Shown: positions 538-32,000, counted from the first letter of the stretch. The stretch: DNA of 32,000 nucleotides from Candidatus Altimarinota bacterium (GCA_041659405.1 JBAZYK010000011.1:30001-62000); one strand, 5' to 3'. Notes: generated by a model not told the origin, from the sequence alone. Numbers and translations: made by a program.

Positions 538-554
538 TTATGGAAATCAAAACA

Positions 555-986
555 TCATCCCTTTGCGAGCACTCTTCTGATCCACGCCGCCGCCTCAGCT
601 GCTAGTCTATCCACTTTCGCAGCCTGCGCCGCAACTTCATCCGCACTCAACGTAGCTTTCACATTTGAAGGTTCTGAAGGAAATGGAACTTCTCCAAGTT
701 TTATCGCAGCTGGATCATGAACAATCAAGTGTTCACCTAAAGCATCATCAAGAGAAAACCCAAACAATCTTTGAGCATCACCAACCTCATCCGACGTAAA
801 AGTATATGAATCCCTATCGCCTTCCCAATCATCAACATAATCCTTTGCAGGACAACCGGGCCCTTCCCCATCCCACAAATCCCCACTCACATCTCTAACA
901 AAAGAATCCCCATCTCTACCCCTACCAAGACTTTCAACGTCCATATCAACAATTTCATTTGGATCAACAACCTTATTTACACTCAT
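555..986 (-). CDS. hypothetical acidic protein (143 aa)
   Basis: ORF track. D/E-rich with no motif I recognise. Its start overlaps the upstream pabC-like stop by 14 nt, which suggests translational coupling within the folate operon. Confidence 0.5.
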   Translation of the reverse strand: MSVNKVVDPNEIVDMDVESLGRGRDGDSFVRDVSGDLWDGEGPGCPAKDYVDDWEGDRDSYTFTSDEVGDAQRLFGFSLDDALGEHLIVHDPAAIKLGEVPFPSEPSNVKATLSADEVAAQAAKVDRLAAEAAAWIRRVLAKG

Positions 987-1830
987 TGCGATGAAAATTT
1001 AACAAATTCAGAGTAACTGCACCCGGCCTCCCGTTGCCAATTTTCCTTCCATCAATTTTAACCACCGGAATTATACCACGCGGCGCATTGGTTATAAAGA
1101 CCTCATCAGCCGCATACAAATCCTTCAATTTAAAATCCGCCAACAAAGCCTTTATTCCATTTTTTTTGGCGATCTTCATTAAAAAATCACGCGTTGTTCC
1201 GGCCAAAACATTTTTCTTTGGCGAGAGCAAAACGCCATTTTCCACCATGAAAATATTTGTAATTGTTCCTTCCAAAACATAATCGGCGGCATCCACAAAC
1301 ACAGCCTCGTAAACTTTTTTTTGTTGAGCAAGACGCGATCCCATAACCATTGGCAACAAACTAATCGACTTCACCTCGGGCAAATATCGCTGAGCTTTAA
1401 AAGTCACCACCGCCACGCCTTTTTCATAAAACTTTTCCGGTTGAGGCACCAATCTCTGCACCTGAACAAAAATCGTTGGCTTTTCCCCGGGCCCAAAATC
1501 AAATCCATTTTCTCCACGGGTAACGGTAATACGAATACGCGCTTCAGAATCCGCTTCAGCCTTTTCCGATTCACGACCATTTCCAAATCCATTCAATTGC
1601 ACAGTCTTTTCAACCCACTCTCCAATTTGTTTAAAACTCCACGGCAAACGAATTCCCACCAATTTACAGGATTTCCCCAGACGCTTTAAATGCTCATCTA
1701 TCTGCCAAATTCGACCATCATAAGTTCGCAAAGTTTCATAAACGCCGTCTCCATACAAAAAACCATTATCAAAAACGGACACTTTTGCCTGCGCCGCCTT
1801 CAAAAACTTACCATTCAAAAAGACAATCAT
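973..1830 (-). CDS. pabC: class IV (fold-type IV) PLP aminotransferase family, probably 4-amino-4-deoxychorismate lyase
   Basis: 285 aa with MIVFLNGKF..FDNGFLYGDGVYETLRTY..EGTITNIF, typical of the IlvE/PabC/Dat family. The PabC call rests on context between pabB and folP. IlvE or Dat cannot be excluded. Confidence 0.65.
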   Translation of the reverse strand: MIVFLNGKFLKAAQAKVSVFDNGFLYGDGVYETLRTYDGRIWQIDEHLKRLGKSCKLVGIRLPWSFKQIGEWVEKTVQLNGFGNGRESEKAEADSEARIRITVTRGENGFDFGPGEKPTIFVQVQRLVPQPEKFYEKGVAVVTFKAQRYLPEVKSISLLPMVMGSRLAQQKKVYEAVFVDAADYVLEGTITNIFMVENGVLLSPKKNVLAGTTRDFLMKIAKKNGIKALLADFKLKDLYAADEVFITNAPRGIIPVVKIDGRKIGNGRPGAVTLNLLNFHRNECK

Positions 1831-1883
1831 TCCAAAACTTTAAATCCGCATCCATTCTACAACAACCAATCGCAAAAGAAATG

Positions 1884-2429
1884 CTATTCTTCTTCGGCTT
1901 CTCCCGCTTCCACAGATATATCAAATCCACCAATAGCTGGAGATGCAATCGGAGTAAAAAATTCCGCACTAACTCCCGCAAAACCAGCAAAAGTCAGCAA
2001 TGGGCCCCCAATTGAAACGCCCTTATAAGCCTCACGAATTAAATCAACTTCCGCACCGGCAGGCGTTGGCGTAAATTCATTTCTTCCTGGAATATAAGTA
2101 CTACTTCCATCAACAAAAACCGGCACCGCATCAACCGGAGTAGAAACTTGATCAACACTTGCGCGCATTAGACCACGAATACCATCGATTTTTATCCCGG
2201 CATAACCAAGAAATTCCGGAGTTTCAAAACCTCCCGATTGATGTATTCTGTTAGGATAACCGGCAGGGGCACGCTTTGTATCAGATTCCGATCTGGGCAC
2301 ATTGATGACCTTTCCCAATTCCGGCGTAAGCACCTCTATTCCTTCTGCTCCTAGCTTAGGATTTCTTTTTTCATCTTCCAGTAATCCCGGATCAAACGCA
2401 CCATCCGGATCTTTATTTGTTTCACTCAT
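1884..2429 (-). CDS. hypothetical protein (181 aa)
   Basis: ORF track. Same strand and tight spacing inside the pabB-folP operon. No recognisable motif. Confidence 0.45.
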   Translation of the reverse strand: MSETNKDPDGAFDPGLLEDEKRNPKLGAEGIEVLTPELGKVINVPRSESDTKRAPAGYPNRIHQSGGFETPEFLGYAGIKIDGIRGLMRASVDQVSTPVDAVPVFVDGSSTYIPGRNEFTPTPAGAEVDLIREAYKGVSIGGPLLTFAGFAGVSAEFFTPIASPAIGGFDISVEAGEAEEE

Positions 2430-2469
2430 AAAAAATTAGTAAAAAATACAAAGCGTAAATTATTCAATT

Positions 2470-3165
2470 TCAATCAACACGCGCCCCTACAAAACTGTTA
2501 TACAAAGTATCTTCCGCAGGCGGAATGATGACCGGCTTGCGCTTAGCAACAGGCTTTAACGCAGAAAGAGGAGGCGCATCAACAACTTCAACGGGAGCAT
2601 GAACCGGTCTTTTATATACACCCGAGTTTGGCAAAGTTGGCGCCGCAGATGGAACGGAAGAGTTAACTTCCGCAGAAACACCAACTTCTGGCAGAACATC
2701 AACCTCATCAAAAGTCACCCAATTTCCACTATCTTTTGGAGCCCTAGAAGCAGCGACCTCACTCAAAACACGTTGGCATTGTCCACTAACTTCTCCAACA
2801 CTATCCACAACCGGATTACGACAAACCTCAACCAGTGCCCTTTCCAAGGATCCATATGAAAGGGTAAAAGCCGACTCTTTAGGATCATCAACATCAGTTT
2901 TTGGCCCACTGTCTGCTACATCCGCCAAATCACTGGAAAGTGGCCCCCAATTATCAAAGCCTCCCCTCGCATGTACTTCTGCCAATCCTGCAGCTACCTC
3001 ATGACCTTCCGGCCTTTGTCCATAAGCTTTCGCCTGCTCTCCTACATGTTCTCGTATTTTGGCCAATGTCCTCATTCTTGTCTTTTCATTAGCAGCCCTC
3101 ACAGCCTCCATAGCAGCAAGATCAACAGGCCATTCGCCTACATCACTTTCTTCCATATCCATCAT
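2470..3165 (-). CDS. hypothetical acidic protein (231 aa)
   Basis: ORF track. Same strand as the operon. No recognisable motif. Confidence 0.45.
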   Translation of the reverse strand: MMDMEESDVGEWPVDLAAMEAVRAANEKTRMRTLAKIREHVGEQAKAYGQRPEGHEVAAGLAEVHARGGFDNWGPLSSDLADVADSGPKTDVDDPKESAFTLSYGSLERALVEVCRNPVVDSVGEVSGQCQRVLSEVAASRAPKDSGNWVTFDEVDVLPEVGVSAEVNSSVPSAAPTLPNSGVYKRPVHAPVEVVDAPPLSALKPVAKRKPVIIPPAEDTLYNSFVGARVD

Positions 3166-3293
3166 TATATTGAAATTAGTTTCTAAAAAAAACCACGAAG
3201 TTCAACATACACACACAAATTCAAAAAGTCAACCACTCGCTCCAGGCACTTTTGAAAACAAAATCCCATTTCCTGTCTAAAAAATCACACACA

Positions 3294-4733
3294 CTACTTT
3301 AAAGCCTCATTCAAAGCCTCCGCCTTCATTAAAGTTTCCTCATATTCTTTTGTAGGATCAGAATCAGCCACAATTCCGCCGCCAACCTGCGCATAAATTT
3401 TCCCGTTTTTCTGCAAAATCGTCCGAATCAAAATATTTAGATCGGAGTCGCCCAAAAGGTTCACAAAACCTGCAGAACCGGTGTAAATCCCTCGCTTAAA
3501 ATCCTCCAAACCATCAATAATCTGCATGGTCCGCTTTTTAGGACAGCCGGTAATTGACCCACCCGGAAACACCGCCCGCAGCGCATCCCAAAAATCCTTT
3601 CCATAAGCCAATTTTCCTTCAACTTTCGCAATTGTATGAATCACATGTGAATATTTTTCGATTTTCTGAAAATCAGTAACCTTTACACTGCCCGCCTCGC
3701 AAACTTTTCCAAGATCATTTCGCTCCAAATCGGTAATCATAGCGAGCTCCGCTTTTTCCTTTTCCGAAGCCAAAAGTTCCGCCTCATGCGCCGCATCTTC
3801 TTCCGCATTTTTTCCACGAGCCACCGTGCCTTTAATCGGCCAGGTTTCAACTTTCGTTCCTCTTTTTCTAAGCAACAATTCCGGCGAAGAACTCATAATT
3901 TTGAACTCCGGGAACTCAAAATAACAGCTAAACGGTGAAGGATTAAGGCTTGAAAGTTTTTGATAGATTTTCCAGCCATCAACCGTACAATCCGCCGCAA
4001 ATCTCTGTGAAAAATTAACCTGATAAGTTTCTCCATCCTTCAAATATTGTTTTACCGCCGCGATTTTCTCTTGATATTGAGCAAAACTCACATTCGATTT
4101 TAAAGCTCCCATTTCGCCGACAGACCGTGGTCTAACCGGCTTCTGCAAATCCTCTTTCATGGTTTCAATTTTTTTACGCGCCTGCAAATCCGTCTCGGCC
4201 AAAGCCAAAAAATACAATTCATTTTCCTGATGATCAAACGCAAAAACCTTATCCACAAAAGCAAAAACAAAATCAGGCAGAACCACATCATCAAAAACTT
4301 TCTGTTCAACTTCCATCAAATTCGCGCCAAAATCATAACTGAAATAACCCGCCGCTCCACCAAAAAACGGCACCGGCGCCGCCCCATGATAATGAATGAA
4401 TTTAAAAATATTTTGCAAAACGTCCAAAGGCTCCCCTTCCACAATTTGACCGGTATTTTTCTTCTCAAAATCCAAAAAATCACGACGCTTTAAAAGCTGC
4501 GTCACCCCTTTGGTGGAACCTGCCCCACTTGCCTCACGCATACTGGAACAAACCATGTATGGATCATAACCAATATAAGAATAGCGCTCGGACAAGCCAC
4601 TTTTCTTCCCCGCAAAATCTCCGCCACTTTGCAGCAAAAACGCGTAATCTCCGCGAACATGATCAAAAAAACTGGCCGGATTTTCATCCTTGGCCAGTTT
4701 CCTTTTCTCGAAAAAAAGTTTTACGTATTTCAT
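3294..4733 (-). CDS. pabB: chorismate-binding enzyme, aminodeoxychorismate synthase component I (PabB/TrpE family)
   Basis: 479 aa. The C-terminal core ..SPELLLR..WPIKGT..RG..DLERNDLGKVC..VFPGGSITGCPKKRTMQII..RGIYTGSAGF.. is the chorismate-utilising enzyme signature. PabB is favoured by the pabC/folP neighbours. Confidence 0.8.
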   Translation of the reverse strand: MKYVKLFFEKRKLAKDENPASFFDHVRGDYAFLLQSGGDFAGKKSGLSERYSYIGYDPYMVCSSMREASGAGSTKGVTQLLKRRDFLDFEKKNTGQIVEGEPLDVLQNIFKFIHYHGAAPVPFFGGAAGYFSYDFGANLMEVEQKVFDDVVLPDFVFAFVDKVFAFDHQENELYFLALAETDLQARKKIETMKEDLQKPVRPRSVGEMGALKSNVSFAQYQEKIAAVKQYLKDGETYQVNFSQRFAADCTVDGWKIYQKLSSLNPSPFSCYFEFPEFKIMSSSPELLLRKRGTKVETWPIKGTVARGKNAEEDAAHEAELLASEKEKAELAMITDLERNDLGKVCEAGSVKVTDFQKIEKYSHVIHTIAKVEGKLAYGKDFWDALRAVFPGGSITGCPKKRTMQIIDGLEDFKRGIYTGSAGFVNLLGDSDLNILIRTILQKNGKIYAQVGGGIVADSDPTKEYEETLMKAEALNEALK

Positions 4734-4807
4734 ACAAATTGTTCACAAGCGACAAAAGTTCAACAGAACAATTTTTAACTCAATTCCACAAAAAACAAAT
4801 CCACCAA

Positions 4808-5296
4808 TTAAACCCGTTCGTCTTCCCCGTAAACATGTTCATACTCGCTCTTAGCGTAGTCAAAAAGTTCATCTGGATTGAAAAATCTTGGAACTTCTTT
4901 CATGGCAGTTTCAACGGAATCGGAAGCGTGAACAACGTTACAAGCCACGCTCATAGCCAAATCACCGCGGATAGATCCGGCTTCGGCACTGCGAGCCTTG
5001 GTAATTCCACATAAAATGCGAATAGCTTGAACAACTTCCAAGCCCTCCAAACAAATCGCAACCACCGGCGAACTTTGCATAAACCTTGTTACACCGGGGA
5101 AAAATGGCTTATCGGCAATATGCGCGTAATGTTCACGCAAAACAGCTTCACTCAAACTCATCATTTTAATACCAACAACTTTTAGACCTTTCTTTTCAAA
5201 ACGGTTCAAAACTTCTCCAATAAGCCCTCTTTGAACTCCATCCGGTTTAATTAAAACGAGTGTTTTTTCTTTGATACCTTTAAATTCCATTGCCAT
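4808..5296 (-). CDS. ndk: nucleoside diphosphate kinase
   Basis: 162 aa. TLVLIKPDGVQRGLIGEVLNRFEKKGLKVVGIKM and NVVHASDS (active-site His region) are NDK hallmarks. Confidence 0.9.
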   Translation of the reverse strand: MAMEFKGIKEKTLVLIKPDGVQRGLIGEVLNRFEKKGLKVVGIKMMSLSEAVLREHYAHIADKPFFPGVTRFMQSSPVVAICLEGLEVVQAIRILCGITKARSAEAGSIRGDLAMSVACNVVHASDSVETAMKEVPRFFNPDELFDYAKSEYEHVYGEDERV

Positions 5297-5487
5297 AATT
5301 TTAGATCAGTTAGCGAATAAATCGAAAACATATTACCGAGAATAGGAAATTTGGCAAGTGGAGTTCGCTCCGCGGCTACTTATAAGCTCAGTCCATGACC
5401 TCATAAAAATAGGTACTTCGTGCGTGGCCATCATTTAAAAAAATCACGATAAGCTATATAATCATCACCGCATAACAATAAAACCGC

Positions 5488-5982
5488 ATGAAAGCCGTAC
5501 GAATAATTCAAACCGTATTTACCGCAATCGGGGCAATATTTTTACTTGTAGCCGCCGGAATTTTTCTAAACTCCCAAGCATCTCTTGCAAACGGCACCAT
5601 CACTTCCAGCCTTGTCGATTTATGGCTTTTGCCAATGCTTTTTGGCCTAATCGGGGTCGTATTTTTCGCCGTTGGTTTTGGAATGATAATGTGGGGAGTT
5701 AAAAAAGCTGCCACTATTAAAAAACTCCAGGAATCCGGCCGCAGAATTGAAACCGAAATTAAAGGTGTTGAATTAAATACCCACTATAGAGTCAACGGAC
5801 GTCACCCCTATCGCATTATTTCAGAGTTCACCGAAGGCAATAATATTTACATTTTTAAAAGCGATAATATCTGGTTCGACCCCACAAACTACATCAAAAC
5901 AAAAACCATCAGCGTCCTGGTCGACCCCAACAATATGAAAAAATATTACACAGACATTTCATTTCTGCCGAAGGTGAATTAA
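5488..5982 (+). CDS. membrane protein, two N-terminal TM helices plus a soluble domain (possibly DUF3592-like)
   Basis: 164 aa. Hydrophobic stretches AIGAIFLLVAAGIFL and LLPMLFGLIGVVFFAVGFGMIMW. The family assignment is from memory only. Confidence 0.5.
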   Translation: MKAVRIIQTVFTAIGAIFLLVAAGIFLNSQASLANGTITSSLVDLWLLPMLFGLIGVVFFAVGFGMIMWGVKKAATIKKLQESGRRIETEIKGVELNTHYRVNGRHPYRIISEFTEGNNIYIFKSDNIWFDPTNYIKTKTISVLVDPNNMKKYYTDISFLPKVN

Positions 5983-5998
5983 GTTCGCATCACCCACA

Positions 5999-6361
5999 TC
6001 ATTTTTCAAACTCTACAAGAATTTTATTGATTATTACCTCTGCTTTATCAATATCTTCCTGCGTTGTAAGCCTATCTTTAAATTCGGTGTCGTTTACTAA
6101 AGCTTCATGATAAGCAAAAACTTCAGCGCATAATTCTTCAGGAATTTGAAGTTCTTCATTCAAGACATTCCTTATGATGTCTGCCAAATTGCCGGCCACC
6201 AGAGCAAACCAAGCTTTTCGAACTTTATATTTGGAATTCGGCGAAGTCGAATACAAAACCTCTTTTGGTATACCATTTTTCCAACCGGTCATTGCCGCCC
6301 TTAAACCACCAACAATCTCTTGCTTTAAAGCCTCTTGCCCCATTGGTTCACCCTCTCCCAT
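5999..6361 (-). CDS. hypothetical protein (120 aa)
   Basis: ORF track. Plausible amino-acid composition. No known motif. Confidence 0.45.
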   Translation of the reverse strand: MGEGEPMGQEALKQEIVGGLRAAMTGWKNGIPKEVLYSTSPNSKYKVRKAWFALVAGNLADIIRNVLNEELQIPEELCAEVFAYHEALVNDTEFKDRLTTQEDIDKAEVIINKILVEFEK

Positions 6362-6392
6362 ATAATTTATTGAAAATAAGTTTCATCTCCCT

Positions 6393-6476
6393 CCCCGGCC
6401 CCCCGTGGCATGTTTCCTGAGCACATTCGGGGTAGGGGCCCCATGTGCGAAGGGAATATGCCGCGGGGGGCTGGGG
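6393..6476 (+). other. 84-nt GC-rich nested hairpin (possible small structured RNA or palindromic element)
   Basis: The 19-nt arm 6393-6411 (ccccggccccccgtggcat) pairs with 6458-6476 (atgccgcggggggctgggg). Both imperfections are G-T/T-G pairs only when read on the + strand. An inner stem gcacat/atgtgc lies at 6421-6426/6443-6448. Confidence 0.4.
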
Positions 6477-6487
6477 TTAAGAGTTCC

Positions 6488-7753
6488 CTAAAACTTTAGT
6501 AGCTTCAAGAATCGTTCCTCATCATCATACGGCCCAATTATCGCAATTCGCAAATTTTCTTCTTTGAACAAATCACGCGCCACGCGACCAAGATCCTCTA
6601 CAGTTACAGCATCAACCATTTTCATAATTTCTTCCGGTGTCTCTACATTTCCATACAAAAGTTCAAATTTACCAAGCAAATGCGCGTATTCTTCCGAATC
6701 TTCCAGACGCAAAACCATTTTTCCTTTCAAAAATTCCTTTGATTTCAGCAACTCCGCTTCCGGCACGGGTTCGGTTAAAACTTTTTTATACTCTTCCACA
6801 ATTGCGGTAATTGCCTTGTCTATGCCGTCTAAAGAAACTCCGGCATTCGTGGAAAAAGTTCCGGTATCGGTATAATCGTCAGTTGAAGTGTTGATGTAAT
6901 AAGCCAATCCCTGCTTTTCACGAACCGACAAAAACATTCTGGAACTCATATTCCCACCCAAAACAATTCCCAATAATTTTGCGGCATAGTGATCTTTATG
7001 CTGTTCCGAATAACCCGGAAAACCCAAAATCACATGAGCCTGTTCGGTTTTTTTATTGCGAAGATAAATCTTTTTTTCAACCTTAACATCTTTTACCTCA
7101 TTAAAATTGTAGGCTTTTTCGGCATCCTCAAACGTAAACAATTTTGAAACAGCCTTCACCATTTCATCATGATCAACATTTCCGGAAACGGCAATTACCG
7201 TATTCCCAGGCACATAAAGCTCTTTCTTGTACTTAATGAAATCCGCCTGTTTTATGCCCATGATCACCTCTTTAGTCCCCACCTGATCCCAACCAATCGG
7301 CTGATCACCATAAATCAAACGCTCAAAATCCCAACCAATCTGGTACATTGGCGTATCCTGATACATATTATATTCTTCCATAATTACCCCACGCTCTTTG
7401 TCGATCTCCGCCGGATCAAACTTGGAATGAATCAACATATCCGCCAAAACATCCAAAGCCAAATCCACATGCCTGTCCGCAACCTTTATATAATAGCCGG
7501 CATATTCTTTGCCTGTGAAAGCGTTAAAATCGCCACCAACCGAATCAATTGCCTCCGAAACCTCTTTAGTATTCGTATATTTTTCAGCGCCCTTAAAAAA
7601 CATGTGCTCCAAAAAATGCGAAATTCCATTAAGTTCTTTTATTTCATAACGCGATCCCGCTCCCACTAAAATCAAAACCGTTACCGATTTTGTATTATCG
7701 AGTTTTTTAGTCACAATTCTAAGTCCATTTTGTAAAGCTGTTTTCTTTAACAT
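6488..7753 (-). CDS. M16 family zinc peptidase (insulinase/pitrilysin-like)
   Basis: 421 aa with the inverted zinc motif HFLEHMFFKG (HxxEH) near the N-terminus and the typical M16 two-domain length. Confidence 0.85.
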   Translation of the reverse strand: MLKKTALQNGLRIVTKKLDNTKSVTVLILVGAGSRYEIKELNGISHFLEHMFFKGAEKYTNTKEVSEAIDSVGGDFNAFTGKEYAGYYIKVADRHVDLALDVLADMLIHSKFDPAEIDKERGVIMEEYNMYQDTPMYQIGWDFERLIYGDQPIGWDQVGTKEVIMGIKQADFIKYKKELYVPGNTVIAVSGNVDHDEMVKAVSKLFTFEDAEKAYNFNEVKDVKVEKKIYLRNKKTEQAHVILGFPGYSEQHKDHYAAKLLGIVLGGNMSSRMFLSVREKQGLAYYINTSTDDYTDTGTFSTNAGVSLDGIDKAITAIVEEYKKVLTEPVPEAELLKSKEFLKGKMVLRLEDSEEYAHLLGKFELLYGNVETPEEIMKMVDAVTVEDLGRVARDLFKEENLRIAIIGPYDDEERFLKLLKF

Positions 7754-25294: not shown

Positions 25295-25649
25295 GCATGA
25301 AAAAATCCGAATAGTGCGAAAACTTTTCGTAGCGAATACCCTGCCCTTTTGGAAAATACTAAAAAACTTTTCAGGGAAAAGGTTTTTAGATTTAAAAAAA
25401 CTCCATCATGCCGTTGAACCTCAAGGATACTAAACCCCCAGTACCCAGTATGGGTGCCCGCAAACCAACCGCACACGGTTGGATATATTGAGCCCCCTTA
25501 AACAATGCGAAGAGAGAGTATATGGGGTCCTGACGTGCAAAATAGAGTAACCAAAATGTAACAAAAATCAGCCAAAATATCAAGGACTTCCCGGCTTAAA
25601 AAATAGTCAACTAGCCATTGTATCTGGTCAGTCGACAACGCCCCTATTG

Positions 25650-26695: not shown

Positions 26696-26785
26696 GGAGA
26701 GATCGCATAGTGGCCGAGTGCGCATGCTTGGAAAGCATGTAACGTCGCAAGGCGTTCGAGGGTTCGAATCCCTCTCTCTCCGCCA
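26696..26785 (+). tRNA. tRNA-Ser (anticodon GGA), long variable arm, CCA encoded
   Basis: Acceptor ggagaga/tctctcc, anticodon stem catgc/gcatg with loop ttGGAaa, long variable arm taacgtcgcaaggcgttc, T arm gaggg-ttcgaat-ccctc. Confidence 0.9.
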
Positions 26786-26964: not shown

Positions 26965-27510
26965 ATGAAAAAAATTTTATTACCACTGCTACTCATTGTT
27001 TTCATTCAAACGGGTTGTGGTAACGGCGGAATTAAAGAAGAAGCCCACACCCAACGACCGGGTGAGTTTAAAAATGGGCAACTGTATGCCACTTTTAAGA
27101 TAGATAATTTCCAGATGAACTATCCCAATTGGCCGAATTTTGATACAAGCAAAGCGGCCGACGCGGACAAATACAAGCTTGCAGTAGCCAATGAAGGCTG
27201 CAGTTTTATTATTAAAGTCTCACCGGTTCCCTCAAACATTTCCTTTAAAGATTATGCCGAGAATGCGCTTCAAGAAGGGACAAAACTATATCCAACAAAG
27301 ATTTTGATCAAAGACGTTAAGGACACTTTTGCCCATTTTGAAGGCGAAATATCAATGAGCAACGTTATCATGAAAAGTGTTACCTACGCCTATTTCACCG
27401 GCAAAAAAGAATCTGTCAGTGTCGGTTTGGTTGCCCGAAAAGACCAATTTGACCAAGGCTGCACGCCAATAATGGATGAAGCGATCAGCAGCGTTAAAGT
27501 GGACTTCTAA
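26965..27510 (+). CDS. putative lipoprotein (181 aa)
   Basis: Signal peptide with lipobox LLLIVFIQTGCGNG. No other motif. Confidence 0.6.
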   Translation: MKKILLPLLLIVFIQTGCGNGGIKEEAHTQRPGEFKNGQLYATFKIDNFQMNYPNWPNFDTSKAADADKYKLAVANEGCSFIIKVSPVPSNISFKDYAENALQEGTKLYPTKILIKDVKDTFAHFEGEISMSNVIMKSVTYAYFTGKKESVSVGLVARKDQFDQGCTPIMDEAISSVKVDF

Positions 27511-28366
27511 TTCTGGCCAAAGCCACACTTGTAAGTCTGGTATAAATTTGAGTTGTGCGGATACTGCTGTGCCCCAAAAGCTCCTGCAAATAACGAATAT
27601 CCACACCATTTTCCAGCAAATGAGTCGCAAAACTGTGCCGCAACGCATGAAATCCGGCAATTTTATTGATCCCCGCTTTTTGCATAGCCTGCAAAAAAAC
27701 TTTCTGAGCCGTTCGCGAATGCAACTTCCCTCCCCTCTGGCTTTCAAAAACAAAATCGCCCAAACTCTTACCAAAAATAAACGCCTTCAATTCATCTTTT
27801 ATTTTACCCGGCATCACCGAAAGACGATCCTTGCCACCTTTTCCTTTTCGCACACAAACAAGCACACGCTCAAAATCCAAATCAGCCACCTTCAAATTAA
27901 CAACCTCACTCACCCGCAAACCAGATCCATAAGCCAAAGAAAGCATTAACCGATGTTTCTGATTTTTAAGAGCTGCCAGTAGTGCCAAAATCTCTTCCTT
28001 CAAGAAAACAACAGGCAAACGCCGAGATCTTTTCGCAAACTTTAAAGGAATTTGTGTTTGATTCTTCAGCACCTCCCGATAAAAAAATTTAATCGAATTC
28101 AAATAAAGATTCACCGTTTGCGGAGCAAAGCCCTTATCGTGCTTCCACAAAAGAAAAGTCCGAATTTTCTCGACATCCAAAATTTCAATATTAGAGCCCG
28201 CTTCGCAAGCAGTAGCAATAGTCATATCCTGCGGCCCCAAAGCTCTGGAATCATTTTTCAAAAATGCCAAAAACACACTCAAACATGACCGATAAGCCTT
28301 AGCCGTCCGCTGACTATGCCCACGAAGCTTCACTTCCTCCACCAAACGATCCAAATAATATTTCAT
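27494..28366 (-). CDS. tyrosine recombinase, integron-integrase-like but lacking the IntI-specific insertion
   Basis: 290 aa. The catalytic set lies in ..GLRVSE.. (R), GKGGKDR (K), HALRHSFATHLL (H-x-x-R), LLGHSS (H) and IYTRL (Y). It shares RRLPVV, KVADLDF, GKGxKDR and the C-terminal (I/V)RSPL with IntI1 as I recall that sequence. The spacing from KDR to LRH is 60 aa here, against roughly 100 aa in IntI1. Confidence 0.85.
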   Translation of the reverse strand: MKYYLDRLVEEVKLRGHSQRTAKAYRSCLSVFLAFLKNDSRALGPQDMTIATACEAGSNIEILDVEKIRTFLLWKHDKGFAPQTVNLYLNSIKFFYREVLKNQTQIPLKFAKRSRRLPVVFLKEEILALLAALKNQKHRLMLSLAYGSGLRVSEVVNLKVADLDFERVLVCVRKGKGGKDRLSVMPGKIKDELKAFIFGKSLGDFVFESQRGGKLHSRTAQKVFLQAMQKAGINKIAGFHALRHSFATHLLENGVDIRYLQELLGHSSIRTTQIYTRLTSVALARIRSPL

Positions 28367-28508
28367 AACTTTTTTATTATAAAACTAAAGACCCCCAAAG
28401 AAGACTCAATGGAGGTCGGTAGCAAGATGCTACGGAAGAAGAATTGCCAATAACATTGTAGTATTTTTCATTGTTCATGGTCAATTTAAAATTTTTAGTG
28501 CTAGCCCG

Positions 28509-28577
28509 TGGTGGAGATAAGGGGAATTGAACCCCTGGAAGATGAATGGCAATTCCTCCTCCGCGCCTGCTATCCCC
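28509..28577 (-). ncRNA. 69-nt tRNA-Ala-like minihelix (acceptor plus T arm, non-tRNA core), CCA encoded
   Basis: Minus strand: GGGGAUA-GCAGGCGC-GGAGGA-AUUGCCAUUCA-UCUUCC-AGGGG-UUCAAUU-CCCCU-UAUCUCC-A-CCA. The acceptor has a G3-U70 pair and the T arm is canonical, but there are no D or anticodon arms. It could be a functional tRNA-like RNA, a tmRNA-TLD-like relic or an att remnant. Confidence 0.4.
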
Positions 28578-28717
28578 GCCCAAGGCCAGCTGAGAACAAA
28601 ATACACAAAAAACATTAAAAAATTCTAAACCCAAAATGAAAAAAACTTAAAAAACATCACTTCCCAAAACCCACCATTCTCTGCTACTATCGCGCCATAA
28701 AGCACCGCAAGACACTA

Positions 28718-28913
28718 GTTGTGCAACAAGTTGCTCACGCGTTTATTAATCAATCTTCCTAAAACTCAAAAAAACCTGGAAAAGTAAGAAGCTCCCGGTC
28801 TGTTCGCAACTCATCGCACAACAGCACACATGCGGTTCGCTGGCTTTCGGCTAATCCAAGGCACAAACTGCTCTTCAAAAAGGTTTAAGAAACCTATAAA
28901 TCTCAAGAAAACT
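28718..28913 (+). repeat. 196-bp perfect direct repeat, copy 1 (start of cassette 1)
   Basis: Identical base for base to 31805-32000 (offset 3087 bp). Identity begins exactly at the GTT of the junction and is cut only by the window end. Confidence 0.95.
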
Positions 28914-29002
28914 CTCACGCTCTCCCAACTTATTTGCAGCAGTCGCCCTTCGGGCATATTATACCGCTGCCAATAAGTTCGCATGGCGTGCGAACGTTAG
29001 CT
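28816..29002 (+). repeat. attC-like site 1 (long variant)
   Basis: Inverse core GCACAAC (28816-28822) is the exact complement of cassette-1 start GTTGTGC (28718-28724). Then A, then L-stem GCACACATGC (28824-33) pairing with GCATGGCGTGC (28981-91). GGTTCGC lies at 28834-40, GAAC at 28992-95 and G|TT at 28996. Confidence 0.65.
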
Positions 29003-29044
29003 GCCATACTCCCTGCGTGAAATTTTAATCTTAATAAAAAAACT

Positions 29045-29350
29045 ATGAAATTATCCACAATTTACAACGCAGCTCTGGAAAAAGCCGACGCAGATGCGGC
29101 AGAAGTCATGATGCGCATGAGTCCAAAGTTAGGTTTAAGTAATCTTGACGACCTTCAAGGTAAAAAAAATCGACAAGAAGCCTTAGAAAGAGTTAATTTT
29201 GTTTATAATTTATCTGGTCCCATTGGAAAAATTGGATTTAGAGTCATAGAAGAAATAAGGGCAATAGATTGGGGTGATCGAATGGAAGAATTTCATGGAA
29301 TAAACCAACAGGAATGGTATAAAGAACTTGGCAATTTCCAAAAAAATTAA
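29045..29350 (+). CDS. hypothetical protein (101 aa), cassette 2
   Basis: ORF track. It starts 48 nt after the cassette boundary and ends 20 nt before attC-like site 2. No recognisable motif. Confidence 0.55.
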   Translation: MKLSTIYNAALEKADADAAEVMMRMSPKLGLSNLDDLQGKKNRQEALERVNFVYNLSGPIGKIGFRVIEEIRAIDWGDRMEEFHGINQQEWYKELGNFQKN

Positions 29351-29370
29351 AATTTCCCTCCGGTCGTACA

Positions 29371-29487
29371 GCAGCTAACAGCGCCCAACCGGTTCGCCCT
29401 GCGGGGCTCTCCCAAATTTTGTGGCGGTGAGTCGCTCCGCTCCCAATTATACCGCCACAAAACTTCGGTTAGGCGCGGACGTTATAT
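29371..29487 (+). repeat. attC-like site 2
   Basis: Inverse core GCAGCTAAC (29371-79) is the exact complement of cassette-2 start GTTAGCTGC (28996-29004). Then A, then L-stem GCGCCCAACC (29381-90) pairing with GGTTAGGCGC (29467-76). GGTTCGC lies at 29391-97, GGAC at 29477-80 and G|TT at 29481. Confidence 0.65.
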
Positions 29488-29627
29488 GAAATATGCTTTT
29501 CTTTTTACGGCTAACGCCTTACACTTTTCTATAATGAACAAATTTTATTTTTAATTTTTTAGAGGGGGTATATGGTATTTTTTCCGCTACGCTCCGAAAA
29601 TGATTTATTAAATATAATTAAAAACAT

Positions 29628-30593
29628 ATGAAAAACGAAGTAGAAATTTTTGATGAAGAAAATACAATCGTCATTGACGATGAATATACAACTAATACTT
29701 TTGAATTTTTTCCTGACGAGAAAAAATTCAAGATCGATGTGAGTATCAAAGATGATTTTCATCATAATTATTCAACAATTGAATATAAAATTTCAGATGA
29801 TCCTATTAATTTAAAAATGCGTACGATAGAGCTTTTTCATGAATTTATAGGCGGGAAAAGTGATTCAATAAAAGACGGGGTTGTCTTGGAATCGGAACTC
29901 AGAAAAGATAAATTTAATAACCAAGAAAGAATAGACGATTTGAAAAAAGAAGTAGAGTGGTCAAATGTTGTCATATTCGGCAACCCCGAAGTCAATCTTT
30001 ATATTCTATCTAAACACCCAGAGATAATCTCAAAAGATGATTATAGGAAATTTTTGCGTCAGTCTATAGAGAGAATTAGAGATGGCGTTGCTAAAGTAAA
30101 AGAAATAGTAAAAACTGATTTTCATGGATTGGAAATCCATACGGGCGACCATGGAATGAGTATTTGGTATCCAGACAATGAATCGGAAAAGAAAGAAAGT
30201 GAGGCATATTGGGATTTACCGAAAGATAAGCGTGATAATTCTGCCTATGGTAAGAAGCTAAAATATGTCGAGGATTTTAATAAATCGCTTTTTGATGAAA
30301 AATCTTCAAGTTATGTTGGCATTTCTGAAATTGAGTTTAGAAGTAGTGATGAAATAGTTGAATATGTCCAAAAACTACTTGATAAAAAAGACGAGCCCGC
30401 TAAAAAAGAAGTTAAACCTAAAATTTCAAAAACAAAAGGATTTATTATTTCTCTGTTTATAACACTTATTCTTTCATGGGTTGTAAGCTGGTTTGTGGAT
30501 ATACACCCATTTTTGATTTTTATAATCGTGCAAGTTATCGCATTTGCACAAAGCATAATTGGTGGTTGGCTAGAAAAAATATTAGAAAAATAA
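29628..30593 (+). CDS. hypothetical protein with two C-terminal TM helices (321 aa), cassette 3 gene 1
   Basis: ORF track. Acidic, K/E/D-rich soluble part, then GFIISLFITLILSWVVSWFV and PFLIFIIVQVIAFAQSIIGGWL. AT-rich codon usage unlike the flanking chromosome. Confidence 0.65.
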   Translation: MKNEVEIFDEENTIVIDDEYTTNTFEFFPDEKKFKIDVSIKDDFHHNYSTIEYKISDDPINLKMRTIELFHEFIGGKSDSIKDGVVLESELRKDKFNNQERIDDLKKEVEWSNVVIFGNPEVNLYILSKHPEIISKDDYRKFLRQSIERIRDGVAKVKEIVKTDFHGLEIHTGDHGMSIWYPDNESEKKESEAYWDLPKDKRDNSAYGKKLKYVEDFNKSLFDEKSSSYVGISEIEFRSSDEIVEYVQKLLDKKDEPAKKEVKPKISKTKGFIISLFITLILSWVVSWFVDIHPFLIFIIVQVIAFAQSIIGGWLEKILEK

Positions 30594-30606
30594 AATAGGT
30601 AATCGC

Positions 30607-31593
30607 ATGAATCAAAACGATTTGAAAATCATAGAAATTGGTCATCAAATCAGGGATCTCTTTAATAATTCCACAATAAAAAAGACACAGGTTTATTCAA
30701 GAAAACAAAGTGGCGATTGGAATCAATTTTGTGCAGCATTAGATACACTTGAAGATACCTGCTTAGCGATAGAGAATTTTCAAAAAGATTCGAATAATTT
30801 ATTTATAAAAAATCCATATTTAGCAACTTACGGACTTTTGCAGGCTCTTTTTATCCAACAAGACGCTGTAAATTTTTTAAAAATATCCTTATTTGGTATA
30901 AGCAATAAAATTGATTGGAAGGACAAAAAATATTCAGAACTTTTTAAAATTAGGCAAGTCAGAAACGAAACCATAGGACACCCCGTAAAAAAGGAGAACA
31001 AAGGCAATAAATCAAAGTATGAAAATGACGAAATCACCTCTTGCACCATTGATCGCTCATCTTTGAGCAAAGACGGTTTTAGATACATGTTATGGATGCA
31101 CTCAAAAACAGAAAGCAAAACGATAAAATTTACGGACATCATCAGTCAACAAGATAAATATCTCGGAAATGAATTAGAAATTGTTATGAAAGAAATTCAA
31201 AAAGAAGAGAATCAACATAAAACAAAATTTAAAAATGAAAAATTGGCCGATTTGTTAAATAAACCTTCTCTGTACCAGATAAATCATATTTATGGCGTTC
31301 AATGGAATGACCATTTAGCATGGCCTAGTTTTAATCATTATCACGAATTATACAAAAAAATAAGAAAGAGTTTAGAAGATCGCTATGGTAAATTTGGCGA
31401 AACTTTGAGGATTCCTGGAACGGAAGAAGTAATCAAAAAATTAGATTATGTATTTGGCAAAATTGAAACATTTCAAAAAACTGGTAATTTTGAAAATTAC
31501 GAACTTGAGGTTTATATTGACGCTCTTGACGCTGGAATTAACGAGTTAAAAACTCATTTAGTAGAAGTTGATCAAGAATTTGAAATACAATAA
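30607..31593 (+). CDS. hypothetical protein with an RNxxxxH (HEPN-like) motif (328 aa), cassette 3 gene 2
   Basis: ORF track. AGGTAA sits 8 nt upstream of the ATG, and the gene begins 13 nt after gene 1. FKIRQVRNETIGHPVK fits the HEPN Rx4-6H pattern with the polar residue after R. This is a motif-level call only. Confidence 0.6.
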   Translation: MNQNDLKIIEIGHQIRDLFNNSTIKKTQVYSRKQSGDWNQFCAALDTLEDTCLAIENFQKDSNNLFIKNPYLATYGLLQALFIQQDAVNFLKISLFGISNKIDWKDKKYSELFKIRQVRNETIGHPVKKENKGNKSKYENDEITSCTIDRSSLSKDGFRYMLWMHSKTESKTIKFTDIISQQDKYLGNELEIVMKEIQKEENQHKTKFKNEKLADLLNKPSLYQINHIYGVQWNDHLAWPSFNHYHELYKKIRKSLEDRYGKFGETLRIPGTEEVIKKLDYVFGKIETFQKTGNFENYELEVYIDALDAGINELKTHLVEVDQEFEIQ

Positions 31594-31596
31594 GGA

Positions 31597-31648
31597 GTCT
31601 TGGCTTCGGGGCATTCACCCCCCAGCCCCTCTGCCCCTACGCCAAGAC
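31597..31648 (+). other. GC-rich hairpin immediately after the cassette-3 ORFs
   Basis: gtcttggc (31597-31604) pairs with gccaagac (31641-31648), with an inner gggg-cattca-cccc. It is followed by an A-rich rather than a T-rich tract, so it is not a canonical terminator. Confidence 0.35.
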
Positions 31649-31711
31649 AAAAATAAAATTTGTTAATTACAAAAAAGTGCCGACTATCGTCGGAAAAAAG
31701 AAAAGCATACA

Positions 31712-31811
31712 TCATATAGCAGCGTATATCTGGTTCGCGCTTGGCTAACGCCAAATGCTCACCCATATTGCTCCCTACGGTCGCAACATCAGATATGCGC
31801 GAACGTTGTGC
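31712..31811 (+). repeat. attC-like site 3
   Basis: Inverse core TCATATAGC (31712-20) complements cassette-3 start GTTATATGA (29481-89) with one G-T pair. The extended match is GCATACATCATATAGC against the complement of GTTATATGAAATATGC, 13 of 16. Then A, then L-stem GCGTATATCT (31722-31) pairing with AGATATGCGC (31791-800). GGTTCGC lies at 31732-38, GAAC at 31801-04 and G|TT at 31805. Confidence 0.65.
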
Positions 31812-32000
31812 AACAAGTTGCTCACGCGTTTATTAATCAATCTTCCTAAAACTCAAAAAAACCTGGAAAAGTAAGAAGCTCCCGGTCTGTTCGCAACTCA
31901 TCGCACAACAGCACACATGCGGTTCGCTGGCTTTCGGCTAATCCAAGGCACAAACTGCTCTTCAAAAAGGTTTAAGAAACCTATAAATCTCAAGAAAACT
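31805..32000 (+). repeat. 196-bp perfect direct repeat, copy 2 (start of cassette 4, a duplicate of cassette 1)
   Basis: Identical to 28718-28913. Truncated by the window end. Confidence 0.95.

Follow-up and report, generated by a model that had tools for sequence, protein, structure and literature searches.

A cassette array beside a Xer-type tyrosine recombinase: a probable non-canonical integron-like system in Patescibacteria

Can gene cassettes be collected in an ordered array, as in a chromosomal integron, next to a tyrosine recombinase that is not an integron integrase? The question is raised by a locus in a 32,000-nt stretch of DNA from a Candidatus Altimarinota bacterium (GCA_041659405.1, JBAZYK010000011.1:30001-62000). 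In this stretch, which we call the window at its full length and in which positions are counted from the first letter, a recombinase gene on the minus strand is followed by a 352-bp spacer (28367-28718) and then by an array of units on the plus strand. An initial reading made from the sequence alone (the sequence-only reading) had taken this arrangement for an integron-like platform. Integrons are defined by the integrase IntI together with attC sites that are detectable with one covariance model. Comparison with other genomes and metagenomes revealed a consistent anatomy and polarity of the array, a rule of circular continuity at the cassette ends, and the sharing and duplication of cassettes with boundaries at their junctions. 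We conclude that the locus is very probably a cassette-capture platform that works like a chromosomal integron, on the Xer-type recombinase that is nearly universal in Patescibacteria (the Candidate Phyla Radiation [CPR]) rather than on IntI. The features of the locus are given below by position and strand; L numbers designate individual loci and contigs, R2 is a covariance model described further on, and a bar marks a junction.

27494-28366, minus strand: recombinase gene; 290 aa, Xer-type tyrosine recombinase (PF00589, 5.5e-41)
28455-28484, minus strand: promoter-like TTGACC-18-TACAAT from a consensus scan, with the hexamers kept in L087 and L004; putative function
28701-28729, plus strand: attI-like core, consisting of a left arm, the centre ...ACACTAG|, and the right arm TTGTGCAACAA; exchange point after G28718
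28719-28996, plus strand: unit 1, a cassette of 278 bp without an open reading frame (ORF); R2 match at 28810-29008, site at about 28810-28996
28997-29481, plus strand: cassette 2, 485 bp; 101-aa ORF at 29045-29350, site 2 at 29367-29481
29482-31805, plus strand: cassette 3, 2324 bp; ORFs of 321 aa (29628-30593) and 328 aa (30607-31593), site 3 at 31708-31805
About 29481-29607 and 31597-31718, plus strand: leader of cassette 3 and its mirrored 3' arm (leader nhmmer search; inverted repeats I4 and I2)
31806-32000, plus strand: second copy of unit 1, identical to 28719-28913 and cut by the end of the window

Each unit ends in the motif ...GCG(A/G)ACG|TT, with the junction G at 28996, 29481, and 31805; the corresponding G of the attI-like junction is 28718. 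From the attI-like core outward, the order is unit 1 (without an ORF), cassette 2, cassette 3, and unit 1 again. The three complete units add up to 3087 bp (278 + 485 + 2324), which is also the spacing of an exact direct repeat, D1 (28718-28913 = 31805-32000; 196 nt, 100% identity), whose first base is the junction G and which continues to the end of the window. The sequence-only reading had described this layout, including a fourth unit that restarts unit 1 at the junction; its coordinates and sums were verified, and the 196-nt identity does run exactly from the junction G. It had also noted, correctly, that all ORFs (101, 321, and 328 aa, all on the plus strand) are directed away from the recombinase gene and that cassette 3 is AT-richer than its surroundings (GC, 0.33 versus ∼0.42 in the flanking chromosome). 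Unit 1 has no coding content beyond short overlapping ORFs, and its site carries an inner insertion of ∼75 nt. In cassette 3, the 321-aa gene begins within the end of a 19-codon ORF (29572-29631), the two sharing ATGA.

What kind of recombinase stands beside this array? The catalytic motifs LRVSE, GKGGKDR, HALRH, GHSS, and IYT are readable, and the protein has an N-terminal SAM-like domain in addition to PF00589. Its best NCBIfam match was NF040815 (XerA_Arch), at 210.6 bits just below the cut-off of 220. Against the integron-integrase model TIGR02249 it reached 197.2 bits (cut-off, 265) and against NF011946 137.4 bits (cut-off, 435), and the XerC and XerD models gave lower scores, far under their own cut-offs. 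The protein is collinear with Pyrococcus XerA (4a8e) in one continuous alignment (residues 71-281). Alignment to Vibrio VchIntIA (2a3v) breaks in two, with 17 aa of the query (197-213) opposite 60 aa of IntI (181-240); those 60 residues include the IntI-specific additional domain around patch III, which the recombinase does not have. Its C-terminal ...RSPL tail is similar to the IntIA tail. The enzyme is Xer-like, with the IntI domain missing, which bears out the caveat of the sequence-only reading that it is Xer-sized. No second recombinase paralogue was found within the 32-kb window. The family comprises 5814 proteins at an E value of ≤1e-20 among 8000 candidates scored, and the few source names that name an organism point to Patescibacteria. 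It probably corresponds to the "Cand" subgroup of Smyshlyaev et al. (PMC8138268), which consists of Xer-related recombinases of candidate phyla considered as possible Xer stand-ins and for which that paper nowhere mentions a link to cassettes.

The sites at the ends of the three units fold stably, lie just downstream of ORFs, and share the blocks CAGC, GGTTCGC, CTC(A/T)CCCA, and GCG(C/T)G(A/G)ACGTT in an alignment. In cassette orientation, the site family reads (C/G)RTC-NNNN-AAC, A, a stem of ∼12 bp with an interior, the return strand, and (A/G)AAC-G|TT-NNNN-GAAAT. AAC and GTT did not vary in any of the 48 sites aligned. Spacers of 1 nt and 4 nt separate the outer boxes from the inner ones, and the 11-bp inner stem beside these spacers, which is the only paired part examined, was 98.5% paired and had no bulge. 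The interior varies from a plain loop, in sites of 44 to 47 nt, to a conserved Y shape made of GGTTC, a hairpin, C(A/C)CCCA(T/A)AT, a second hairpin, and AACATC. The spacer lengths and the unbulged inner stem bear out the earlier statement that the sites are not canonical attC.

We built the covariance model R2 from 18 sites of other genomes, none of them from the window, and searched with filters off. In the 32-kb window R2 found the three sites only, all on the plus strand: site 3 (31708-31817; 75.8 bits; E = 3e-17), site 2 (29367-29493; 68.1 bits; E = 3e-15), and site 1 (28810-29008; 31.3 bits; E = 9e-6). The next-best candidate had an E value of at least 1. An earlier model, R1, for which the centre had been cut out of the sites, was unable to span real sites, matched them weakly and in part, and was dropped; an exact-motif scan of the loci for GCGAACGTT or GGTTCGC proved too restrictive to help. 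Rfam, searched over the region at an E value of ≤1, returned nothing at the sites and has no attC family. Besides this family, a second, symmetric site type (AAC-N2-stem...stem-N2-GTT, ∼120 to 140 nt) forms an ORF-less first unit beside the recombinase and reappears deeper in two arrays (L046, 9731-9856; L047, 9685-9821 and 6399-6535; L060, 9217-9336 and 8153-8272; L077, 2438-2573).

Does the arrangement recur? We scanned 955 kb on both strands, from 80 genome loci that encode relatives of the recombinase (41 to 59% identity by best segment). Almost all of these loci are from metagenome-assembled genomes (MAGs) of Patescibacteria; two have the label Margulisbacteria, and several records bear further taxon labels that seem to be wrong. 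R2 gave 92 matches at an E value of ≤0.01, all 92 of them on the upstream side of the recombinase gene and on the strand opposite to it; the downstream flanks, 616 kb in total, contained no match. Of the 45 loci whose upstream sequence is 1 kb or longer, 36 had at least one site, as did 21 of the 24 with 5 kb or more; arrays contained, for example, 8 or more sites in L039 and 7 or more each in L046 and L047. Successive sites were separated by a median distance of 829 nt. An independent scanner based on pairing found 44 sites upstream on the opposite strand and 1 elsewhere (1.8 expected in shuffles). These comparisons support the sequence-only reading: the same recombinase, insertion site, and co-oriented array stand together in those 36 loci, and the site family is abundant in metagenomes. 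There, an 18-base site pattern was found in at least 120 contigs among the matches listed, and 80 of these contigs held 151 R2 matches, always on a single strand per contig. A search of the metagenomes with the start of unit 1 gave no match. Among viral contigs, a 16-base pattern had 28 exact matches, roughly the chance estimate, with real sites in one contig alone (L115), where a recombinase is present as well. In this contig (IMG/VR 3300000568_000548, filed as viral), five weaker family sites at 554-7435 follow a 38%-identical recombinase on its downstream side and in its orientation, a layout inverted with respect to all genome loci.

The gene-proximal end of the array is also conserved. 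A junction about 60 to 300 nt upstream of the recombinase start was kept in ∼35 of 41 loci, with the consensus ACTTCGCATAAAAACGAG|TTATNTGAAAT. The core of the window, CACCGCAAGACACTAG|TTGTGCAACAA, is a CTAG variant, as in L071, L074, and L081; its left half is similar to the conserved consensus, and its right arm is the start of unit 1. Across loci, the core, 60 to 350 bp upstream of the recombinase gene on the divergent side, takes the form of an 11-nt arm, a 7-nt centre ending in ...AG, and then |TT and a second 11-nt arm. Complementarity of the arms peaks at this 11-7-11 register (6.3 Watson-Crick pairs of 11, versus 2.1 to 4.4 in the other registers tested). Simple tyrosine-recombinase cores, dif among them, are built in this way. 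Whichever cassette stands first supplies the right arm, and pairing between arms is no better within a locus than between loci.

The sequence-only reading had held that sequences to the right of G|TT are unrelated; instead, a conserved arm stands there (family consensus, GTT-NNNN-GAAAT...), and it is complementary to the 3' arm of the cassette's own site. The NNNN at a cassette start was perfectly complementary to the NNNN before the AAC of its own site in 28 of 56 cases, versus 3 of 56 for the start of the adjacent downstream cassette (Fisher p, 1e-7). The count of 28 of 56 is a lower bound because undetected sites mis-assign some cassette starts. In cassette 2, for instance, the first 37 nt pair with the 37 nt ending in its own AAC (inverted repeat I1), the start GTTAGCTGC... 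being complementary to ...GCAGCTAAC of its own site, and in cassette 3 the first ∼70 nt pair with 31649-31718 (inverted repeats I4 and I2, 24 and 31 nt). Because the NNNN pairs with the site of its own cassette, the cassette ends form a single continuous hairpin only in the circular form. A circular intermediate leaves own-cassette pairing of this kind as its signature.

Many cassettes in distant CPR lineages open with a leader of ∼125 nt (L004, L006, L013, L026, L056, L070, L082, L136, and others). It consists of the arm GTTNNNNGAAATATTCCTTTTCTTTT, a small GGGCTATCGCCC hairpin, an A/T-rich block, AGAGGGG, and a covarying hairpin, GTTTTC-TCCGCTCCGCTAC-GAAAAC. In cassette 3, a leader search with nhmmer gave an E value of 4e-20 in sense orientation and 3e-5 in antisense at the 3' end; the first ∼85 nt of the leader are mirrored at the cassette 3' end, which gives the cassette long terminal inverted repeats. 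The description of the cassettes as promoterless is not established, given that so many of them have this conserved leader.

The cargo of the arrays is diverse and mostly co-oriented, with 124 non-overlapping ORFs on the cassette strand versus 29 on the opposite strand. Pfam searches assigned 110 different families in 127 ORFs. The commonest was Fic/DOC (5 ORFs), and others include AbiEii, parts of type I restriction-modification systems, NUDIX, methyltransferases, SET, isochorismatase, and queuosine salvage. Of the 25 most frequent cargo families listed, none was one for replication or transfer. The three cargo proteins of the window had no credible match in Pfam, NCBIfam, or PADLOC. The 328-aa protein (30607-31593, plus strand) contains VRNETIGH, an R-x5-H motif reminiscent of HEPN nucleases but without profile support, and the 321-aa protein that precedes it has a hydrophobic C terminus.

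Have cassettes in fact moved? A 2085-nt block at 90% identity occurs in both L046 and L060, at distances from the recombinase of 6.3 kb and 4.5 kb, respectively, in arrays that are otherwise unrelated. The homology begins at ...AACG|TTAGCTGA, and the sites that precede it differ. Further cassette-sized blocks are common to L060 and L082 and to L052 and L067. The closest relatives with usable flanks have different first cassettes, with a 113-aa ORF in L084 and a VanW gene in L085 (65 to 66% identity). Cassette content that differs among relatives, together with shared blocks bounded at G|TT, agrees with the integron-like reading. Moreover, the first unit after the gene-proximal junction recurs deeper in the array at 98 to 100% identity in three independent loci (the window, L047, and L060). 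The copies are 3.3 kb apart in L047, a single-cell genome, and 1.06 kb apart in L060, and in both the duplicates span exactly from one G|TT to the next; the copy in the window is cut at 32000. This first-position pattern is predicted by insertion of a copied cassette there and not by random tandem duplication, and the second unit 1 of the window is most readily understood as the duplication of a whole cassette that was re-inserted at the first position.

A contig end falls within 500 bp of the recombinase gene on its upstream side in 28 loci versus on its downstream side in 3 (binomial p, 5e-6), and for 13 sites the end of the contig is no more than 100 nt away. Breaks upstream of the recombinase fit arrays that are repeat rich or variable within the population, and assembly breakage has likewise been noted for integrons (PMC9024848). 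For the window, an ENA contig of 3077 nt (L001) covers 28861-31937, passing unbroken through the junction at 31805 into unit 1, and a contig from Logan (L003) reaches 29 nt into the repeat and ends there, as a de Bruijn branch at k = 31 would predict.

How might such a system work? Cassettes would leave as circles through recombination between two sites and would enter at the gene-proximal core. In analogy to attC of integrons and attP of CTX-phi, the substrate would be the folded single strand of the site, mimicking a dif-like core. The outer arms of the site would serve as one recombinase-binding arm and the inner stem as the other, with the internal loop of 1 by 4 nt as the centre. Exchange would take place within GTT, and the product would be resolved by replication, as for integron attC and CTX-phi attP. 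The IntI domain is regarded as essential for integron recombination.

Like sedentary chromosomal integrons, such as the Vibrio superintegron and those of archaea (PMC9668308), the locus has a recombinase gene divergent from the array, an insertion site adjoining the gene, and co-oriented, mostly single-gene cassettes of ∼0.5 to 1 kb with very diverse accessory cargo. The cassette-end sites are likewise imperfect palindromes with an outer AAC...GTT and an exchange point in GTT, and the R''-R' complementarity is continuous through the circular form; ORF-less cassettes, cassette duplicates, and assemblies that break within arrays are further likenesses. In contrast to integrons, however, the recombinase has no IntI-specific domain and scores under the IntI cut-offs, the spacers are 1 and 4 nt rather than ∼5 and 6 as in canonical attC, and no extrahelical bases occur in the inner stem (the only paired part examined). 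Moreover, the outer arms, at 11 to ∼85 nt, are both long and conserved, a symmetric dif-like core takes the place of attI, and the host range is Patescibacteria.

Other Xer-based systems each share a part of this. CTX-phi and the integrative mobile elements exploiting Xer (IMEX), which use the host XerCD at dif, also involve a Xer-type recombinase, a folded single-stranded DNA hairpin whose partly unpaired centre mimics the double-stranded core, and a proposed single-strand exchange resolved by replication, which is known for CTX-phi and would apply here as well. Those elements, however, are phages or islands with their own replication or transfer genes that integrate once or a few times, whereas the units here are small, gene sized, and numerous and stand in ordered arrays. 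XerS/difSL of streptococci and XerA/dif of archaea likewise rely on a single Xer-like recombinase (the one studied here being collinear with XerA), and in XerS/difSL the core site is immediately beside the recombinase gene; their sites, in contrast, are at the replication terminus, a position unsupported here, and have no cassette arrays. The pdif modules of Acinetobacter plasmids are also discrete gene modules bounded by Xer-type sites, but their XerC/XerD sites alternate in inverted orientation, on plasmids, with no recombinase gene alongside, whereas the sites described here are all in one orientation per array, of the hairpin type, and beside a recombinase gene. The locus is a non-canonical integron-like system, a Xer-based analogue that is widespread in CPR.

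The rival that survives best holds that the recombinase is the dimer resolvase of CPR and the core its dif, as in XerS/difSL, with the cassettes as IMEX-like dif mimics that hitch-hike there. The array would then be a by-product rather than a dedicated capture system; the mechanism would be in part the same as for a capture platform, and the difference would be one of purpose. We consider this possible but doubtful. It draws on the collinearity of the recombinase with XerA and its score near the XerA_Arch cut-off, on the ubiquity of the family in CPR (the 5814 relatives noted above) and its treatment in the literature as a Xer substitute (PMC8138268), on the 11-7-11 dyad symmetry of the core, and on the presence of the core in L017 and L024, where no array was detected. 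A housekeeping Xer recombinase with an ordinary dif site had been named by the sequence-only reading as a combination that would refute an integron; of the two halves, the dif-like insertion site is what we found, and it qualifies the integron analogy but does not overturn it. The chromosomal position that a resolvase site would call for is unsupported, however. Several loci keep the same sign of GC skew on both sides (L004, L051, L072, and L080) and others switch in an origin-like sense; the skew tracks gene strand and gives no consistent terminus signal at the locus. Nor do the units resemble hitch-hiking elements: the 25 commonest families include no replication, phage, or transfer genes, the units are single accessory genes of integron-cassette size, and most of the sampled genomes have arrays, which are long and uniform in orientation.

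Several points weigh against reading the locus as a capture platform. The recombinase may simply be the housekeeping Xer of CPR, as assumed in PMC8138268, and the domain that it lacks is the part of IntI that binds the extrahelical bases of attC. In L017 and L024, a core (ACTTCG(T/G)ATA...ACGAG|TT(A)NNTGAAAT) stands 100 to 160 nt upstream of the recombinase gene, yet R2 found no cassette site in the 10 kb upstream, so the core, present there without an array, may have a primary role unconnected to cassettes. When metagenome loci were anchored on sites, a recombinase was within reach in 3 of 80, most of the contigs being short; the three contigs that do include it show the divergent layout again. 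Stem covariation, with both-sided changes at 9 of 11 pairs across 48 sites, is a partly circular count because those sites were picked for pairing. The two innermost stem pairs, which were not used in choosing the sites, were paired in 47 of 48 and 48 of 48, and RNAalifold on full sites also found compensatory changes in an inner hairpin on which the choice of sites did not depend. The stem is closed on the top strand by a conserved G-T pair, so that a function at the RNA level is possible. Finally, the circles and the choice of strand are steps that we infer.

In a second rival, the sites are structured intergenic repeats (repetitive extragenic palindromic [REP] or bacterial interspersed mosaic element [BIME]-like sequences, terminators, or RNA elements) that lie between accessory genes by chance, without site recombination. 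Stable folding just downstream of ORFs would suit such repeats, and the G-T pair and the conserved leader hairpin would suit RNA-level roles. A chance scatter of repeats would not, however, place 92 of 92 matches on one side and one strand of a recombinase gene with zero in 616 kb of downstream flanks, and the own-cassette complementarity rule, the homology boundaries at G|TT, and the duplicates bounded by cassette junctions all speak against it; we regard it as very improbable. Least probable of all is that the 196-bp repeat arose in assembly, or through a plain tandem duplication of 3087 bp that has nothing to do with the sites, since, even though the window ends inside the repeat with its far end out of view and L001 (3077 nt) is close in length to the 3087-nt period, the identity begins exactly at the junction G, the junction is present in two other assemblies, of which L001 passes junction 3 into unit 1 unbroken, and the duplicates in the single-cell genome L047 and in L060 comprise exactly one cassette, from G|TT to G|TT.

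Around the recombinase gene, some further features were seen. Its 5' leader (∼28395-28450) holds two hairpins with compensatory changes between the window and L004, and the TTGACC-18-TACAAT element upstream of the gene has its hexamers conserved in L087 and L004; the region 28395-28484 (minus strand) may be a regulated 5' untranslated region of the recombinase mRNA. A tRNA-like element of 69 nt (28509-28577, minus strand) has a 7-bp acceptor stem with G3:U70, the T-arm GGGGTTCAATTCCCC, and a 3' ...CCACCA. It matched Rfam transfer-messenger RNA (tmRNA) at 33 bits, under the gathering score of 47, with no ARAGORN call, and it is kept in the 88%-identical relative L087 and replaced by a short hairpin in L004. 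This tmRNA-like match suggested an island inserted in ssrA, the tmRNA gene; we rejected ssrA integration because the 69-nt insert is sub-threshold in Rfam, absent from L004, and outside the junctions. At its other end, the recombinase ORF overlaps the 3' end of a convergent 181-aa ORF (26965-27510) by 17 nt (27494-27510). That ORF has a lipoprotein-like N terminus, and a tRNA-Ser (26696-26785) and an L28-like ORF lie just beyond it. A 6S RNA gene is at 25396-25551 on the minus strand (Rfam RF00013; 50 bits versus a gathering score of 46.4).

Full-text searches, with subscription-only papers outside their scope, found no description of an integron-like system or of such arrays in CPR/Patescibacteria. 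Of the complete integrons in RefSeq genomes under the IntI/attC definition, 93% are in Gammaproteobacteria (IntegronFinder 2.0; PMC9024848), and for archaeal integrons it was emphasised that the integrases carry the IntI domain (PMC9668308). In a 2026 permafrost study (PMC13323075), 97% of contigs with "integron-type" recombinases had no detectable attC, with "novel attC" raised as one explanation. The system applies the integron principle through a recombinase of another subtype and through sites of another geometry. It could help account for "integron-type" recombinase contigs in metagenomes without recognisable attC such as those of PMC13323075, and a Xer-type cassette platform across CPR would broaden the known range of the integron mechanism. 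It also marks a hypervariable, assembly-breaking locus of CPR genomes, which the covariance model and the site rules allow to be annotated, and the site rules allow diverse cargo to be mined, including toxin, defence, and modification genes.

Such a platform would moreover offer a concrete system for asking how integrons arose from Xer recombinases. We lean, if only slightly, toward the broader proposition that Patescibacteria have a phylum-wide cassette system run by Xer, without the IntI domain and with hairpin sites that mimic a dif-like core. If so, it would be either a surviving form of the transition from Xer to integrons or an independent invention of the integron principle, and it would give these genome-reduced, host-dependent bacteria a general route for gaining genes.

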